Shown here one piece after another: positions 25,537 to 40,877 of a DNA stretch of 64,000 bases. The DNA is taken from contig CAZESD010000001.1 in NCBI GenBank assembly GCA_964514945.1, positions 40,246 through 104,245 of the forward strand, in the 5' to 3' direction. The notes beneath the pieces were generated by a model. The model was not told where the DNA came from. It was given only the letters and a program-made list of their open reading frames with translations, and did no database searches. Origin of the DNA: Candidatus Hadarchaeota archaeon. Lineage in GTDB: Archaea > Hadarchaeota > Hadarchaeia > Hadarchaeales > Hadarchaeaceae. A program made the translations under genes and the position numbers. Position 1 is the stretch's first letter, and the number at the start of each line of letters is the position of its first letter.

Positions 25537-25658
25537 GACTGTTTTGAAATTTGAGAAATCAGTCACGAAAAAGTATGTTTTTACATCTGAATTTTCAAAA
25601 TAAGTGTAAAAGTGCCACCATCGTCCATCAAGAACGCCATGAAGACTCAACGCGATTC

Positions 25659-26474
25659 TCAACCCCGTGTATCACCGTAACTTATCAATTTTATTTTTCT
25701 ATTTTTTATTATTCGTTTAATCCTTTTGCTGGTTAACGCCTTGGTTTCTGCCGCTCTGTGGGCGGCCACATGTTTAAGTTCACTAGGATCAACCGCTTTC
25801 ATCGCTCTCATTTCAGGGGTATCCAGCCCCGGATGGTTGCCAATTAGCCAGAGACCGGGGGTAAGTTTCTTAAGAACACCTACTAAGACCTTTTCTTTCT
25901 TTAGAGGTGAAACATCATAGGTGGGGAACCATTCTCCACGTTTTTCTCCCAAATCGCCAGAGATGGGTAATTTGTACTCTGCGGCAAGCTTCTTTACAAT
26001 CGCCTTCAGTTCTGGGGAAAATTTTGCCACGTGCATATGATTAGATAAATGTGAGATATTTACGCCTTTTTTCAACGCTAGTTCGATTTGAGCCCTAAGC
26101 TCTTTTTCGACTTCAACCAGCTTCGGTCTAGCCGCCAAGAAGTACGGCTTACTCGGAAAGAAATGACCATCGTTATCAACTAAACTAGGTACTTCAGCTA
26201 CTGGCAGTACTGGCCCCCACGAGTAAAACTGCCATTCGCTGGTCAGAACCAAGTGCAATCCAATATCAAGCTTTGGATTTTTTCTGGCTATCTCGACTGC
26301 TTCATTGAACCAAGGGGGTGTAACCATTATCTCAGCTGAAGTTAAAATGCCCTCCTTATACACTTTTTCAAAAGCTAAATTGACACTGTGGCAAAAGCCC
26401 AAATCGTCACACCTGACGATAAGCTTGATTTCATCGCTAGAGTTTTCGGCTTCAGCGCCGCCGTCGCTATCCAA
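25659..26474 (-). CDS. YdjC/ChbG-family carbohydrate (chitooligosaccharide-type) deacetylase
   Basis: 'LIVRCDDLGFCHSVNLAF' and 'IGLHLVLTSEW' match YdjC motifs. Start placed at TTG 26474, 5 nt after GGAGGTGAT; the track start GTG 26483 lies inside the SD. Confidence 0.8.
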   Translation of the reverse strand: MDSDGGAEAENSSDEIKLIVRCDDLGFCHSVNLAFEKVYKEGILTSAEIMVTPPWFNEAVEIARKNPKLDIGLHLVLTSEWQFYSWGPVLPVAEVPSLVDNDGHFFPSKPYFLAARPKLVEVEKELRAQIELALKKGVNISHLSNHMHVAKFSPELKAIVKKLAAEYKLPISGDLGEKRGEWFPTYDVSPLKKEKVLVGVLKKLTPGLWLIGNHPGLDTPEMRAMKAVDPSELKHVAAHRAAETKALTSKRIKRIIKNRKIKLISYGDTRG

Positions 26475-26610
26475 AGGTATCACCTCCTTAAACCTGTTGT
26501 CAAAGTGCTATATGTCTTTCAATCCTATGGTAGTCTTGTTAAATTTAATAAGATTCACTCATAAAAATTAGTAGCTAGAGTGGAGGAAGGTAAAAATCCA
26601 GAGGTGAAAA
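26449..26610 (-). repeat. Promoter/SD-leader cassette, copy A (upstream of the ydjC-like gene)
   Basis: Shares three blocks with 31151-31333. (1) The SD/start block 'GGTTTAAGGAGGTGATAC.TTTGGATA.CGAC' (reverse strand). (2) The TATA block 'TTATTAAATTTAA'. (3) An upstream block with 'AGGT(A/G)AAA' twice, at 26588-26595 and 26602-26609. Confidence 0.7.
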
Positions 26611-26672
26611 ACAATCTAAAACCCCTCGCCGATTTGTGTTTGGAAAATTCGCCGTGTTTCGAGAAGGGACTT

Positions 26673-28433
26673 CTAAACTTTTTCTCTCGAACACACCGCC
26701 ACGAAAAACCAAATCGCATGAACAATCCACTGCTCGGTCCATCGCCAGGCATATTTGTAAGAATTCTTTAATTTATAGTTTATAGATTCCGGTAGAAAAT
26801 CTATATCTCTTTCATCGTGAAAACCGGCCGTTATGCCGTTAACGATACCGCCTGGGGCATTTTGAAATCTCGGACGGAAATCTGGGGGATTTCTACCGAA
26901 GCCGTGGAGCATGCAAACACCAAAAGGATTCAGTCCCAGTACCCAGTTCAACTGGTTTCTGGCGTACTCCTCCAACTTCTCAGAAAAGGCCTCATCCCCT
27001 TTGAAAAGGACGCTTGCCAGGTATGCTGCGGTAGCTAACGAGGCGATGCGTCCGTTTTCCCCCTGCCACCAGTAACCGGACTCGTTTTCGTGCGGCATGA
27101 AAAAGGATGAGCGTGGTTTCTTGTCTACAGGTTTCACATACTGCCTTGCGTACCCAAATGGATTCACAACCTCTTCCGTAATCTTCAGTTCAAATTCCAG
27201 AGAAGCTCTGATTTTCTCTAACACCTCCTCTCTCAACGGTGAATCTTTGTCGACTTCCAGAAATCTGATCAGCGATGCAACGGGGAAGCCCGCCTCAGTG
27301 GCATGGTAATATGGCCGCTCCCCCTTGTCATCCGCCCTCCACCAACCCGAGTAATTAGAATCTGAAGATAGCCTATCCAAGAGAGATCGGGCCCGTCTTC
27401 TAGCAGCCAGAACAAATCTCTCTTCTCCTGTGGCGTTAAACAATTCTGATGCCGCTAACAACGCGCAATAATCATCTATAATATTTTCTTTCCCATCTGG
27501 CAGATACTCAATATTTTTTTCTTCCAGGTGATCAAAAGCTCTAATAGCTCCTTCCAAGTATTCCTCACTTTTGTAATCAGAGGACTCTCCCAAGGTACTT
27601 GCCCTCGCCAGCGCGGCGATTGCAACGCCACCCCCCTGTCTGTAGCCCACCTTGTACTTATCAGTTTTTTTATAGGAAATAGGCCCCCAGTTTATAAGTG
27701 CGCATATCTCCCTCGGGCCGGTCCTCTTGAACTGTTCGTCAAATACACTCAGGTAAAAGTAACCCTCCTTGTCCAGTATGCGCATCAGAAAATCTGCTCC
27801 ATAGAGGGCCTCTTCAATCAAACGAACCTTCAAATTTCCACCGAGGGGATGCTTGTACCCCAGCAATCTTTCTAGGGAATCGATCAATCCCCACACAACA
27901 AGGGGCGTCTGCTGGGTGTTCATATAGCGATTGAGGTGGCTAAGGTGTTTACTTACATCCCCGGCAGCATCGTACCAGCCACCGTGCACGTCCACCCGGT
28001 CTTTCCTTGACCCAACGAATTGCACGCTGTGGTCCGCCCTGTCGTACTTACCGGAACACCGCTGAGATTTAAAGTAAAATAGGATGTCTGATAAAGTTTT
28101 TTTCTGTAGAATATTTTCAGCAATTTCGAACGATCTTGAGCGGTATTCTTTCTCCCCCGCATTTATCAAAATATAGAAAAAACCAGTACCCTCAAAGTCC
28201 GAAAAGTCCAAGGTCCAGAAATTCCAGTCCTTCCAACTATCTACGTGTCCAGCGCGATGTATCTTTCCTTTGAAAACAGCCTTCCCGCTATCTTCATCTA
28301 CGAGACTGAACTTCGTTAACCCTGAATCCTCTGGTGCCTCAATCACCGCTCTCTTTTTGCCGGCTCTTTCATATCCGACATAATCTACAAAGATTTTCAA
28401 TTGATCCCTCCAGTCTAGGTTTTCTATCTGCAA
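26673..28433 (-). CDS. GH9-family glycoside hydrolase with N-terminal Ig-like domain; cytoplasmic (no signal peptide)
   Basis: 586 aa. 'VDVHGGWYDAAGDVSKH' (the GH9 GGWYDAGD region) and C-terminal 'NWVLGLNPFGVCMLHGFG...GGIVNG'. The N-terminus is hydrophilic. Confidence 0.78.
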   Translation of the reverse strand: MQIENLDWRDQLKIFVDYVGYERAGKKRAVIEAPEDSGLTKFSLVDEDSGKAVFKGKIHRAGHVDSWKDWNFWTLDFSDFEGTGFFYILINAGEKEYRSRSFEIAENILQKKTLSDILFYFKSQRCSGKYDRADHSVQFVGSRKDRVDVHGGWYDAAGDVSKHLSHLNRYMNTQQTPLVVWGLIDSLERLLGYKHPLGGNLKVRLIEEALYGADFLMRILDKEGYFYLSVFDEQFKRTGPREICALINWGPISYKKTDKYKVGYRQGGGVAIAALARASTLGESSDYKSEEYLEGAIRAFDHLEEKNIEYLPDGKENIIDDYCALLAASELFNATGEERFVLAARRRARSLLDRLSSDSNYSGWWRADDKGERPYYHATEAGFPVASLIRFLEVDKDSPLREEVLEKIRASLEFELKITEEVVNPFGYARQYVKPVDKKPRSSFFMPHENESGYWWQGENGRIASLATAAYLASVLFKGDEAFSEKLEEYARNQLNWVLGLNPFGVCMLHGFGRNPPDFRPRFQNAPGGIVNGITAGFHDERDIDFLPESINYKLKNSYKYAWRWTEQWIVHAIWFFVAVCSREKV

Positions 28434-28509
28434 TCTCTTTCAGCATTTTTCATCTGTGTTTCATTTGGATTTGTACGTATTTAGCCCTTGCTCCACGCTT
28501 TGGTTAGGC

Positions 28510-29160
28510 GCTCAGCCAACGTTTCAGCTGGATCGAGCCCCCGCTGCTTGTAGCAGAATGTTGCAGGCTGCCGATCGGGAGACTAGAAGAGGCAACTGGC
28601 AGTTTCGAAACAAATTGATTGGAAGATTGATAGAACTCAAAGGAAAAACCCTTGGGATAATTGGGTTCGGGAAGATAGGTCGAAGAGTCGCAGAGATCGC
28701 ATCTAGTATCGGGATGAATGTCAAATACTATGACCCGTATGTTGTGGAACGGGGGGGAAGTTCAGAAAAGTGGGGTTTGAAGAGCTCCTCAGAACGTCGG
28801 ATGTCATATCGGTTCACGTCCCATTGACAAGTGGAACTCACCATCTGATCAGTGAAAGAGAGTTGGGGCTCATGAAGAACTCCGTTATACTCGTCAACAC
28901 ATCGGGGGGTTATAGACGAAAAGGCACTTGTTAAGTTTTTAAAGAGCGGAAAAATTCACGCTTTCGAAACCGATGTGTTTGAGGTGGAACCACCAGACCC
29001 GAGTTCCCCTCTTTTTACATTCGAAAATACGGTAATCAAGCCGCACATGGCAGCCTTCACGGGGGGGCATTTCACGATATGTCGGTGATCGCAGCGGAAG
29101 AAACGGCAAAAATATTGAAGGGCCTGCCCCCCAACCCGCTTTTTATCCTTAATAGGGGGG
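28510..29160 (+). pseudogene. D-isomer-specific 2-hydroxyacid dehydrogenase, N-terminally truncated and frameshifted three times
   Basis: NAD-domain 'GKTLGIIGFGKIGRRVAEIA', then 'FEELLRTSDVISVHVPLTSGTHHLI...ILVNTSGG', 'VIDEKALVKFLKSGKIHAFETDVFEVEPP...KPHMAAFTGG', 'AFHDMSVIAAEETAKILKGLPPNP'. These lie in successive frames. The shifts fall at G-runs 28751-57, 28904-09 and 29061-67. The N-terminal substrate domain is absent. Confidence 0.8.
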
Positions 29161-29363: not shown

Positions 29364-30398
29364 TTAAGCAGGATCTCTTATTAACGGACAAGTCGCACAG
29401 CGTGGTCCTCCCTGAGCTTTCTCTAACTCCAGCATGTCATGTTTGATCACCTCGATCCCTTGTTTCTCAAGGGTCTTCGTGGTCTTATTTGATATATGTG
29501 ATGCAACAATCTTCCCTGGTCTAAGGACTAATACATTCACGTCGAAAACACCTGCGCCAGTTGGGATGATTTTGATCCCCAACTCCTTCAACTTTTCACG
29601 GAAACTATATGGCACGTAGGGATTGACTAAAGCTAAGTTTTTTCCAACCATACCTAAAAAGCCATCGATGTGAGTCTGATGGTCTGGAATGTCCATCCGG
29701 ATCAAATTTATTCCGAGAACCCTCAGTACTTCTTCAACTTGTCGTGCTCCCTCCTCGTTTGTTGCAGCACTGCGCCCTACAACTGCATTTTCCTCATTAA
29801 GAAGCGCAAAATTGCCTCCTTCAAAAACTCCTGTGCCATGTATGGTACGTAGTATCGGCACTCCTAAAGATGCTATTTTCTTAGCTACAAGACTTTCTTC
29901 TCCTCTTCTATATTTCTGGGCCATCCGGCATATTATTACTCCACCTTTAACAGCAACAGCATAATCTCTACTCATACAAGCCATAACATGACTACCAGGG
30001 GATACCGTCCCTTCCAGATTTATTACTTCAATTCCCTCATTTCGCATGATTTCTACTAACCTATCATGTTCTTCTTGCATTTTAGGTACATCAGGTAAAT
30101 CCTTACCGGGCCAAAGCCAATTACCTTCTGGATCATATCTCCATCCTACTTTTTCATCGTAAGGACTGTCCGCAGTAACAAATTTAAATTCCTCCTCTCT
30201 TGGTCTGTGAACTAAAACCACTCTTAATATACCTACCTCGTCTGATACCCCCCACTTTCTACCCCAGACCTGTTTTAGCATTTCTTCATCTTCGAACGGT
30301 GGCTCTGGTTTACTCCCAAATATTCCCTTCTCCATCCATAATCGCCAATTAGGATTAGAAGAATCCCAAGCAAAAGCACCTTTTTCTTCACTCATCAT
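29364..30398 (-). CDS. Amidinotransferase / arginine-deiminase-superfamily (guanidino-group-modifying) enzyme
   Basis: 344 aa. C-terminal nucleophile motif 'GGPRCATCPLIR'; 'FEGGNF' and 'HIDGFLGMV' are typical of the pentein fold. AGGAGGT SD. Confidence 0.65.
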   Translation of the reverse strand: MMSEEKGAFAWDSSNPNWRLWMEKGIFGSKPEPPFEDEEMLKQVWGRKWGVSDEVGILRVVLVHRPREEEFKFVTADSPYDEKVGWRYDPEGNWLWPGKDLPDVPKMQEEHDRLVEIMRNEGIEVINLEGTVSPGSHVMACMSRDYAVAVKGGVIICRMAQKYRRGEESLVAKKIASLGVPILRTIHGTGVFEGGNFALLNEENAVVGRSAATNEEGARQVEEVLRVLGINLIRMDIPDHQTHIDGFLGMVGKNLALVNPYVPYSFREKLKELGIKIIPTGAGVFDVNVLVLRPGKIVASHISNKTTKTLEKQGIEVIKHDMLELEKAQGGPRCATCPLIRDPA

Positions 30399-30522: not shown

Positions 30523-30966
30523 CTATAGTTTAAATTCCTCTATCCGTATTTTCTCCTGTCCGCCCATCCTTATCCTTTTTCCTATATCCGCGATTTTTTC
30601 AACTTCCCCTATCTCGGCGAAGACGTTGACGTCGACCGTTTGATCGACAGACTTTCGGGGCCGGCTCTTTCCGTAAAATATGCAGAAGGCGGTATGTCCT
30701 TTGCCCAACGAGGGCAGGGCCTGCGGGGATATGACCGCAACGTCTCCCGGTTTCACTTCGTTGGTTGAGTTTTCATACTCCAGCCTCCCAGAAATGGGAA
30801 ATTCGTTAAAAAATATTTCCTCCCCCGCCCACATGGCGTGAACCACCTTGTTCTCGACCGGCAAAGAAGCCAAAACCGCTCTGCACGTTCTGGGCGCCCT
30901 GTCTTCCAGTAATGTTGCGGTCACGCTCCCGCCGCGTTCGAACCTCAGCAATATCCGCCTAGCCAA
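30523..30966 (-). CDS. DUF3830-like cyclophilin-fold protein
   Basis: 147 aa, TTG start. 'ATLLEDRAPRTCRAVLASLP...HAMWAGEEIF...ENST...PGDVAV' follows the pattern I recall for DUF3830. Confidence 0.55.
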   Translation of the reverse strand: MARRILLRFERGGSVTATLLEDRAPRTCRAVLASLPVENKVVHAMWAGEEIFFNEFPISGRLEYENSTNEVKPGDVAVISPQALPSLGKGHTAFCIFYGKSRPRKSVDQTVDVNVFAEIGEVEKIADIGKRIRMGGQEKIRIEEFKL

Positions 30967-30977
30967 CTGCTATCCCT

Positions 30978-31178
30978 TCATATCATGTGCTCTGTCCTTA
31001 TTATAATCTGGTCCTGGAGGGCACGGGGGAGCTGGGTAAAACGGGCCTTCTTGATGAATGCACTTGCTCGCCTAAGGCGGCTGGGATCCATCTCTACGTC
31101 CTCTGGATTACCATGCCTCAGAACACATTCGACAGACATTCTAGAGTTTTTGGCCTCAGCTTCATCGTCGTTATCCAA
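30978..31178 (-). pseudogene. Duplicated 5' fragment of the beta-lactamase-like serine hydrolase gene (66-codon dead-end ORF)
   Basis: 'LDNDDEAEAKNSRMSVECVLRHGNPEDVEMDPSRLRRASAFIKKA' is nearly identical to the N-terminus of 39547..40710. At the nt level, 31046-31160 versus 40576-40690 differ at only a few positions. After that it diverges and stops 12 nt before the DUF3830 start. Confidence 0.7.
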
Positions 31179-31333
31179 AAGTATCACCTCCTTAAACCTC
31201 CCAGTTGAATATCTCGATGAGCGCGTCCTAGGAATTATGTTAGTAGTAGCTCGGTTCTTTAAATTTAATAAGATATCCACTCTTATAAAAATTTAGCTAG
31301 GTTGGAGGAAGGTGAAAATATACAGAGGTGAAA
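31151..31333 (-). repeat. Promoter/SD-leader cassette, copy B
   Basis: Same SD/start block, TATA block (31258-31272) and upstream 'AGGTGAAA' x2 (31310-31317, 31326-31333) as copy A. Confidence 0.7.
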
Positions 31334-31371
31334 GAATGAAACCTACAAGCATATCCGCAAAAAGGATCACT

Positions 31372-39546: not shown

Positions 39547-40710
39547 CTAGCCAATGATTGAGGAAGCAATGATGTTATGGAATAGCGGTCTGATTCGAAG
39601 GATCGCTTCGTTCTCCCTCGTAGGGTGAACCCTATTCGTCATAAGGACCGTGATAAGCTTGTTTACTGGGTCGGCCCACAGAGAAACTCCAGGGAAACCA
39701 GTATGCCCGAAAGTCAAGGGGGACAACAATTCGCCAGCTTGGGATCCTTTCTCCGCCTTGACACCCCACCCTAAACCCCTAGGTTCCTCCAGCCCTACCG
39801 TGTGATTCTTGGTCATCAAATCAACAGTTGAGGGGCTGAGAATTCTGTTGTGCCCATACGCCCCCATATTGAGAAATGTTTGGCCAAATATGGCGAGGTC
39901 TTGGGCGGTAGAGAAAAGTCCAGCATTGCCACTTACTCCCCCCATGCCGAAAGCGTTTTCGTCGTGGACCTCCCCTACGAGAATGCGCCCCCGCCAGCTA
40001 CATCTCTCGGTCGCCGCGATTCTATCCCTCAACTTTGCCGGAGGAGTGAAGAGGGTATCCTTCATCCCCAAGGGTGAGAAGATTTCTCTTCTGGAAAAGG
40101 ATGCTAGGCTCTCACCTGCAACTTTCTCTATGATGAACGCCAATAAGATAAACCCTAAGCAACTGTAACTAACCTTACTGCCGGGAGGACATTCCAGTTC
40201 CACATGACATATTTCTCTTAGAAAATCTTCCCTAGTTTTGCACCGCTTATATAGCTGAATTGGATCAGGGATACCGGCTGTGTGTGTTAACAAATTGTGT
40301 AATGTGGTTTTTTCCTTTCCCCCTCCAGTGTACTCTGGAATATAGAGGTTTACGGGGTCGTCCAGCAAAACCTTTCCTTTTTCAAGTAGAATCATCAAGG
40401 ATGTTGCTGTAGCCACCGGTTTGGTCACCGATCCGATATCGAAAATGGTATCTAATTTCATAGGTTTAGAGAGTTCCGAGGGTATAGATACCGCCTCCCC
40501 GCAAGCTTCGTGTGCCACTACCGTGCCGTTACGTGCTACCAAAAACACAGCCCCGGGAAAAGCTTTTTCAGAAATGGCATTCTTGATGAATTCACTTGCT
40601 CTCCTAAGGCGGCTGGGATCCATCTCCACGTCTTCTGGATTACCATGCCTCAGAACACATTCGACAGACATTCTAGATTTTTTGGCCTCAGATTCAACAT
40701 CGCCGCCCAA
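39547..40710 (-). CDS. Beta-lactamase-family serine hydrolase (PBP/esterase/D-aminopeptidase-like)
   Basis: Catalytic 'IGSVTKPVA' (SxxK), 'SYSCLGF' (YxN-like) and 'FGHTGFPG' (HxG). Start placed at TTG 40710 after GAGGTGAT; the internal ATG ('MSVECVL') is an alternative. Confidence 0.8.
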   Translation of the reverse strand: MGGDVESEAKKSRMSVECVLRHGNPEDVEMDPSRLRRASEFIKNAISEKAFPGAVFLVARNGTVVAHEACGEAVSIPSELSKPMKLDTIFDIGSVTKPVATATSLMILLEKGKVLLDDPVNLYIPEYTGGGKEKTTLHNLLTHTAGIPDPIQLYKRCKTREDFLREICHVELECPPGSKVSYSCLGFILLAFIIEKVAGESLASFSRREIFSPLGMKDTLFTPPAKLRDRIAATERCSWRGRILVGEVHDENAFGMGGVSGNAGLFSTAQDLAIFGQTFLNMGAYGHNRILSPSTVDLMTKNHTVGLEEPRGLGWGVKAEKGSQAGELLSPLTFGHTGFPGVSLWADPVNKLITVLMTNRVHPTRENEAILRIRPLFHNIIASSIIG

Positions 40711-40800
40711 AGATATCACCTCGTTAAACCAAGTGCTAAACACCCTCTAATGAAATTTAAAGTTTTTCAATTCTCCAAACTAAGTAATCTAGTTGAGTAT
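40576..40800 (-). repeat. Promoter/SD-leader cassette, copy C (diverged promoter, near-identical 5' coding block to copy B)
   Basis: SD/start block 'GGTTTAACGAGGTGATATCTTTGGGCGGCGAT'. Weaker similarity to A/B further upstream ('GAAATTTAAAG', 'TAATCTAGTTGAG', 'GTGAAATA'). Confidence 0.55.
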
Positions 40801-40877
40801 TAAGAGTCTTCGCTACGTGAAATAAGCAAACTTAAATTTAGCGACTTTGAAGATTTGAAAGGAGAAAGGATGGGATA

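Follow-up and report, generated by a model that had tools for sequence, protein, structure and literature searches.

Ectopic homologous recombination between repeats is known to produce deletions, duplications and Campbell-type insertions in accessory islands. Proteins are also known to gain N-terminal extensions when a gene recruits an upstream start codon, and to be altered by gene fusion after segmental duplication. The nearest described concept for the present locus is promoter reuse or capture in prokaryotes, in the form of the putative mobile promoter (PMP), a highly similar upstream sequence standing before non-paralogous genes of one genome, which has been proposed to rewire expression (Nijveen, Matus-Garcia & van Passel 2012, PMC3575422). 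As outlined in that article, the NAR survey by Matus-Garcia et al. [quoted passage not shown]

The locus analyzed here lies in a window of 64,000 nt from contig CAZESD010000001.1 of Candidatus Hadarchaeota archaeon, on which a short gene-start module occurs as three copies, A, B and C; the modules are located on the minus strand. Between approximately 21 and 58 kb of the window, the G+C content is 42–48% versus 50.6% for the genome, and the encoded set comprises a YdjC/ChbG deacetylase, GH9, a GH42/GlmA-like hydrolase, a CE4 deacetylase, a ROK kinase, NagA-like and NagB-like enzymes, PFK, SIS proteins, an Opp/Dpp-type ABC importer, an amidohydrolase and a beta-lactamase-fold serine hydrolase. 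This region appears to be an amino-sugar or oligosaccharide utilization island. The ydjC gene and the serine hydrolase gene were each found in 3 of 66 Hadarchaeota species genomes, with a contig-end ydjC fragment in a fourth, all within one genus, and a close orthologue of the DUF3830 gene was detected in no other of these 66 genomes. The source is an archaeal organism, and the window also encodes ABCE1 and a threonyl-tRNA synthetase with an archaea-specific editing domain. GH9 and ydjC are separated by 198 nt, and copy A lies in this gap. ORF B, DUF3830 and a pentein-fold enzyme come after copy B, and the serine hydrolase and the amidohydrolase after copy C. The elements of the three copies and their neighbors are as follows.

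25659–26474, minus strand: ydjC, a ChbG/YdjC-family carbohydrate deacetylase gene including its leader (PF04794, E = 1.5e-51; NCBIfam matches)
26430–26471, minus strand: ydjC leader of 14 codons, DSDGGAEAENSSDE, in frame with the YdjC core that starts IKLIVRCDD
26472–26487, minus strand: predicted ydjC translation initiation region, with the SD GGAGGTGAT at 26479–26487, a 4-nt spacer and TTG at 26472–26474
26495–26525, minus strand: proximal 5′UTR of copy A, homologous to the P2-type ydjC leader region of assemblies G006 and G002 and not to copy B
26526–26615, minus strand: putative promoter region P1 of copy A, conserved in all P1 copies of relatives
26602–26609 and 26588–26595, minus strand: boxes TTTCACCT and TTTTACCT, respectively, in P1 of copy A, whose other elements on this strand are CTAGCTAC and the TATA-like blocks TTTTTAT and TTATTAAATTTAA
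26610–31140, minus strand: 4.5-kb block between the direct repeats A and B, absent from single-module relatives
26673–28433: GH9, in the A–B block
28456–28827, plus strand: 2-hydroxyacid-dehydrogenase fragment, in the A–B block
29364–30398: pentein-fold enzyme, in the A–B block
30523–30966: DUF3830, in the A–B block
30978–31178, minus strand: ORF B, 66 codons, assigned to the A–B block, made of the leader, 33 hydrolase codons and 20 unrelated codons
31141–31199, minus strand: core of copy B, with the SD at 31183–31191, TTG at 31176–31178 and the leader
31200–31337, minus strand: putative P1 promoter and long 5′UTR (U1) of copy B, with boxes at 31326–31333 and 31310–31317
39547–40710, minus strand: beta-lactamase-fold serine hydrolase gene with the putatively grafted leader (PF00144, E = 4.5e-68)
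40669–40671, minus strand: ancestral hydrolase start ATG, where out-group homologues start MS(G/S)K.VLRH
40673–40731, minus strand: core of copy C, with the SD CGAGGTGAT at 40715–40723, TTG at 40708–40710 and 12 leader codons, GGDVESEAKKSR
40732–40834, minus strand: putative P2 promoter and 5′UTR of copy C, with homology to the ydjC promoter of G006 and G002 and no relation to P1
40878–41888: LLM oxidoreductase gene, divergent from copy C

A repeat search of the window delimited the three-copy family to 59 nt, located at 26437–26495 (A), 31141–31199 (B) and 40673–40731 (C), the other two copies being 86% and 75% identical to A (overall range 75–86%). The content common to A, B and C is an SD of 9–10 nt, the TTG and approximately 12 hydrophilic codons up to TCTAG (26437–26441 in A), where the homology of A with both other copies stops; relative to the start codon, the zone of three-way similarity spans about −20 to +40. 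A 24-nt core containing SD and TTG, which is nearly invariant across the three copies, was matched three times when up to 2 mismatches were allowed, versus no match in 100 shuffles. The earlier note on this DNA had proposed a search of the rest of the genome; pattern search and BLAST of the MAG (1.07 Mb, 75% complete) detected no further copies beyond A, B and C. In genome and metagenome collections, a degenerate 28-nt module pattern gave matches confined to Hadarchaeota, every one of which stands before ydjC, the hydrolase or the B chimera. Public records that contain this module bear the label Candidatus Hadarchaeota or Hadesarchaea. The same three-copy layout was observed on an independent 107-kb contig, indicating that it is not an assembly artefact.

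Outside the 59 nt, the extent of the similarity depends on the pair that is compared. Copies A and B share a promoter part (26553–26615 and 31275–31337) with 71% gapless identity over 63 nt, for which the local alignment gave z = 29. The upstream sequence of copy C exhibited no significant similarity to P1 in local alignment (z 0.2–0.3, no better than shuffles). Copies B and C share 155 nt at 90% identity (31044–31198 and 40576–40730), including 96 nt of serine-hydrolase coding sequence beyond the core. The earlier note had described one 5′ module before three units, with the boxes, CTAGCTA and TATA-like blocks among its shared parts. All of its coordinates and strings were verified on the minus strand, as were the start-to-start distances between the paired boxes (14 nt in A and 16 nt in B) and the acidic leaders LDSDGGAEAEN (A), LDNDDEAEAKN (B) and LGGDVESEAKK (C). 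The described module is common to the three units only as regards SD, TTG and leader; the boxes, CTAGCTA and TATA-like blocks are shared by A and B alone.

Compared with PMPs as that article presents them, the module similarly lies before non-paralogous genes of one genome and is tied to no known mobile element. YdjC (PF04794) is unrelated to the hydrolase (PF00144), yet B and C have the above coding stretch in common. In the zone used by the survey, the A/B identity of 71% is below the 80% required, and copy C has nothing there. Unlike the PMPs described in the article, the part of the module present in all copies consists of a ribosome-binding site, a start codon and approximately 12 codons, so that it reaches into coding sequence; the present case further differs from the survey, as summarized there, in being archaeal, in having two unrelated promoter types, and in that break points are visible through relatives.

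An SD-led initiation region, taken as a purine-rich stretch that pairs with the 16S rRNA 3′ end (here the canonical anti-SD) and lies 4–9 nt before an ATG, GTG or TTG opening the ORF, was found in the module. It is composed of GGAGGTGAT, the 4-nt spacer and TTG, in frame with both YdjC and the hydrolase. Six of the 18 genomic occurrences of GGAGGTGAT stand before ORFs, and for this genome it is a rare SD of top strength. The near invariance of the 24-nt core would also agree with a cis-regulatory RNA formed by 5′UTR and leader, such as a riboswitch, a thermosensor, a target of an sRNA or protein, or an anti-SD pairing between box and SD, and box 2 (CACCUUCCUCC) does pair with the SD region in the fold of copy B. 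No Rfam match was obtained in the window at the gathering threshold, however, and the folds were no stabler than those of shuffles (z between +0.25 and +0.8 for UTRs and cores; −0.2 and −1.0 once the boxes were included). In addition, the three copies show no homology among their UTRs, and conservation of the core between species is no better than that of coding sequence. The absence of both a fold and an Rfam match fits an open initiation region and speaks against a structured RNA, which we consider extremely unlikely. Masking of the SD by the boxes (CACCUCC-like) in read-through transcripts was a separate candidate, and was rejected; the pairing in B has z −1.0, and it is absent in A.

From a whole promoter-leader unit reused three times, the earlier note had suggested a common regulator. 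In this reading, selection would keep the module at three sites because one regulator, acting at the TTTCACCT direct repeat or at another shared operator, controls ydjC, the DUF3830 unit and the hydrolase. The box pair is kept in seven P1 copies from different assemblies, including a B copy without the TATA/UTR part; all three units lie within one amino-sugar island; and in G002 both ydjC and hydrolase have P2-type promoters. A location just upstream of TATA-like blocks would also suit the site of an archaeal activator. Against this, the three units are preceded by two unrelated promoters rather than one, copy C lacks the boxes, and the box pair was found at no other site of the MAG. TTTCACCT alone is over-represented, being the reverse complement of the SD-like AGGTGAAA. 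One relative's ydjC retains only a single box, no regulator gene was detected among the 30 island proteins scanned with Pfam, and duplication and recombination suffice to explain the repeats in full. A regulon cassette of this type is therefore unlikely, and the data do not support one regulon spanning the three units here. Recombination alone does not account for the retention of both TTTCACCT boxes in almost every P1 copy. The pair could be a regulator site, or part of a divergent GH1 promoter in G008-like contigs; A and B may be co-regulated via P1, as may ydjC and the hydrolase of G002 via P2. A role of the boxes as SDs, serving small ORFs or genes in the divergent direction, was considered and discarded, as the short ORFs on the opposite strand are not conserved among A, B and G008. 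In P2 of copy C the transcript start would be expected downstream of TTTAAATTT, as in P1 downstream of TTATTAAATTTAA.

The out-group homologues suggest which gene originally possessed the shared start. In homologues of this YdjC subfamily, (I/V)KLIVRGDD is always preceded by further residues, which form a signal peptide in bacterial members and a short hydrophilic tail of variable sequence in cytoplasmic ones; in the present listed ORF, the Pfam YdjC match begins at residue 20. An out-group ydjC at 75% identity has AGGTGATACTTTG followed by the tail MSNDAEAGAQE, and another at 72% identity opens with TTG, carries a tail of 11 residues and stands divergently to an LLM gene. Since out-group YdjCs all have such tails, the SD-TTG-tail segment would be native to ydjC. 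More than 15 out-group serine hydrolases (61–74% identity) start with MS(G/S)K.VLRH, which corresponds to the ATG after TCTAGA in B and C, and the extra tail is present on the hydrolase only in four close Hadarchaeota clusters. Because the out-group hydrolases start at this ancestral ATG and lack the tail, the hydrolase probably received the ydjC module in frame upstream. Homology of approximately 130 nt upstream (z 18.7) was also detected between ydjC of G006 and G002 and the hydrolases of G000, G008 and G002, and the P2 promoter seems to have moved onto the hydrolase together with the module. In the P1 lineage, ydjC cores are 70–73% identical to the hydrolase cores, versus 46–61% for the ydjC cores of G002 and G006; later gene conversion, or the reverse direction for part of the leader, may have taken place.

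Every copy has its tail in frame, and the indels within the tail (6 nt for G008, 24 nt for both the JABUBO and JABUBL contigs) preserve the frame as well. The 24-nt deletion removes the ancestral ATG of the hydrolase, which is replaced by ATT in P0122. Since the ancestral ATG has been lost in some alleles, initiation in these must occur upstream, and we infer that the tail is translated from the TTG. In the hydrolase allele L049, CTG replaces TTG and ATT replaces ATG; this allele may be dead, mis-sequenced or dependent on a non-canonical start. The maintenance of frame, together with a composition (G, A, E, D, K, S, N) maintained across the copies, might suggest that selection has placed the acidic peptide on the N-terminus of several enzymes as a functional tag, with a role in targeting, degradation, solubility or assembly. 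Tail identity is only 36–62%, however, where the enzyme bodies are 77–96% identical, and the tail tolerates deletions of 2 and 8 residues. Out-group hydrolases do without it, and the tails of out-group YdjCs are unrelated in sequence. On inspection, the tails MDSDGGAEAENSSDE and MGGDVESEAKKSR exhibited no hydrophobic stretch, twin-arginine or lipobox of a secretion signal. The tail hence appears to be weakly constrained, and its faster evolution relative to the body argues against a sequence-specific tag, making this reading very unlikely.

Copy B possesses parts resembling each of the other two copies. The flank beyond its P1 is orthologous to the ydjC-upstream flank of the relatives L024 and L051, and at its informative sites it resembles A from the SD as far as codon 4, and mostly C from approximately codon 5 on. 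The hydrolase-derived part of ORF B extends over 31044–31139, beginning at the hydrolase's ATG (31137–31139), and no Pfam match was obtained for ORF B. Its TGA ends 11 nt before the TTG of DUF3830 (30964–30966), and the stop overlaps an SD-like GAAGGGA. Copy B thus seems to be a recombinant between a ydjC module and a hydrolase module that was later truncated, and ORF B most likely acts as a leader ORF coupled translationally to DUF3830. In the closely related 107-kb contig JABUBO010000005, approximately 115 nt of the TATA/UTR part of B are deleted, and the boxes and core are kept. A mosaic structure was also seen in copy A, where the upstream edge of P1 (26609–26611) coincides with the edge of the GH9 segment, and the blastn homology to ydjC of G002 and G006 starts at 26523, in agreement with local and multiple alignment.

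The evidence for recombination was drawn from about 12 related Hadarchaeota assemblies, in which synteny breaks and mismatches between tail and body identity fall at the module. G002, G006 and an out-group contig have the LLM gene divergent from ydjC, and G000, G008 and L049 have it divergent from the hydrolase; the switch between the LLM-side sequence and the hydrolase-type P2 is located at the 5′ edge of the P2 repeat, at 40820–40834 in the window. The region upstream of ydjC comes in three kinds across the assemblies.

P2: G002 and G006
P1 plus a B-type UTR up to the SD: G008, JABAOC, JABAOH and Ga0172365
P1 plus a short UTR, the last 30 nt being P2-like: G000, JABUBO, L050, L051 and L052

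In contigs L051 and L024 the block is missing, and a single module links the outer flank of B to ydjC. In a four-way alignment, L051 turns from B-type to A-type within the boxes, and L024 does so within the SD and first leader codons. Such single-module alleles match a repeat-mediated deletion with differing crossovers, although integration of a circle would fit equally. P0001 has a body that is 96% identical yet a G006-type tail from codon 4, and P0005 has a body of 81% identity yet a tail identical to that of G000. GH9 is placed between ICMT-like and SBP genes in G008-like contigs and beside copy A in G000, and is 96% identical between these, with neighbors at approximately 88%. Recombinational shuffling of 5′ ends, which the earlier note had described as cassette-like, is strongly supported by this comparison of assemblies. 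Concerted evolution within genomes was considered separately and ruled out; the core sequences group by gene, not by genome.

The same sequence before unrelated genes, with edges that coincide with rearrangement junctions, might also be produced by a small mobile element, MITE-like or IS-derived, that carries an outward promoter and transposes before genes. This is hardly credible here, since no copy has terminal inverted repeats, no transposase or integrase is found among the island proteins scanned, and there are three copies in the MAG and two target genes in the collections. Moreover, the extent of homology varies between copy pairs, as is the case for recombination and not for a fixed element. 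An integron-like cassette was likewise not indicated, as the 30 island proteins scanned with Pfam include no integrase and the crossovers vary along the repeat.

As a whole, the locus is probably explained by a duplicated and recombining ydjC 5′-end module that was grafted onto the hydrolase. The repeats would be dispersed copies of one gene's 5′ end inside an accessory amino-sugar island, arising via duplication and homologous recombination. In the ancestor of the subclade, the ydjC module and P2 would have been copied in frame upstream of the hydrolase's own ATG, so that translation of the hydrolase would now begin at the grafted TTG and add a short tail. At a later step, copy B may have been formed from a ydjC-type and a hydrolase-type module, carrying 33 hydrolase codons with it, and at present it would function as a leader ORF, probably coupled translationally to DUF3830. 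Module copies would thus supply start signals for transcription and translation, and as direct repeats of 60–200 bp they would also be substrates for ectopic homologous recombination that inserts, deletes and re-joins neighboring genes.

Two processes are probably combined here, namely the ectopic homologous recombination of short repeats and the lengthening of an N-terminus through an imported start. Similar to known cases of repeat-mediated recombination, direct repeats of 60–200 bp surround a 4.5-kb block, and single-copy alleles exhibit different crossovers. Unlike the usual cases, the repeats are gene starts, not IS or rRNA/tRNA genes, so that each exchange also swaps a promoter, a UTR or N-terminal codons. 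Similar to known cases of start recruitment, the hydrolase has gained an in-frame upstream start and residues, and the ancestral ATG is lost in some lineages; in contrast to them, the extension appears to have been imported from another gene with its SD and promoter, not derived from the hydrolase's own upstream DNA. This is a clear but fairly ordinary reuse of a promoter and 5′ end, and neither a new mechanism nor a new regulon. It nevertheless provides a well-resolved case, from an archaeal phylum without cultured members, of how expression signals may reach an accessory gene by the copying of a neighbor's entire translation start with a few codons, followed by decay of the recipient's own start codon, and of how module copies may become recombination hot spots that reshuffle a sugar-utilization island among close relatives. 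A more far-reaching proposal is that of an "expression adaptor", that is, a selected SD-TTG-tail module with P1 or P2 serving as a docking site that domesticates horizontally acquired genes, the TTTCACCT repeat being the operator of a shared activator. If so, new genes for amino-sugar utilization or cell-wall degradation would join an existing regulatory and translational context by recombination at the module, but we regard this as decidedly doubtful.

For annotation, the module would place the starts of ydjC and the hydrolase at the TTG, versus the GTG or ATG assigned by gene callers, and ORF B would be a chimeric remnant, not a new gene.

The region at approximately 21000–58000 of the window behaves as an accessory island, which was possibly acquired horizontally. 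Its G+C content is 42–48%, down from 51–57%, and the genome mean is 50.6%. Of 66 Hadarchaeota species genomes, only 3 carry the serine hydrolase and only 3 carry ydjC, while a fourth genome has a fragment of ydjC at a contig end; a close orthologue of the DUF3830 gene was not found in any other of these 66. GH9 exhibits 95.6–96% identity between this MAG and contigs resembling the related genome G008, as compared with approximately 87–90% for the adjacent genes (window 26611–28425 versus contigs L027/L029), in which GH9 occupies a different location, flanked by an ICMT-like gene and an SBP gene. This higher identity than that of its neighbours, together with the different location, suggests that GH9 was recently exchanged or relocated between the two lineages. 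Furthermore, comparison of window 25600–25700 (reverse strand) with L029 270–339 revealed that the final codons of ydjC and approximately 25 nt 3′ of the gene are homologous to the DNA directly 5′ of the GH1 start codon in the G008-like contigs (ATCGCGTTGAGTCT(T/C)CATGGC). The homologue in these contigs is inverted and adjoins P1, the promoter with the box pair present at copies A and B, which hints at an ancestral ydjC–GH1 tandem and an inverted duplication.

The block bounded by copies A and B contains the following ORF of 123 amino acids, located in an approximately 930-nt gap between GH9 on one side and a pentein-fold gene on the other.

28456–28827, forward strand, 2-hydroxyacid/phosphoglycerate dehydrogenase fragment

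Its similarity is limited to residues ~110–180 of these dehydrogenases, and the ORF is a gene fragment; such a partial match in this gap suggests debris of decay or rearrangement. Copy B itself was altered in L026 (JABUBO010000005.1), a relative of ~97% identity, of which positions 1400–1560 are orthologous to window 31200–31310. Approximately 115 nt were deleted there, including CTAGCTA, both TATA-like blocks, and the entire UTR, so that the boxes are joined to TCTATATTAAAGG and the SD, creating a new TATA-like string ~27 nt 5′ of the TTG. CTAG is approximately two-fold under-represented across the MAG (2138 observed against ~4190 expected from base composition), yet each module carries 2–3 such sites (CTAGCTA, CCTAGG, and TCTAG), the last being the end point of the ydjC/hydrolase homology.

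The serine hydrolase allele of L049 (Ga0172363_10086390, positions ~300–420) carries CTG in place of the TTG start of the other copies and ATT at the position of their ancestral ATG; its ORF remains open. This may represent a non-canonical start, a dying gene, or a sequencing error. Several homologues of the window hydrolase (39547–40710), with 45–47% identity, are fusions with GH3 beta-N-acetylhexosaminidase domains (PF00933/PF01915), and its top NCBIfam match is PBP4B. These similarities suggest that the enzyme acts on muropeptides or amino-sugar oligomers and processes them, which would agree with the remaining gene content of the island.
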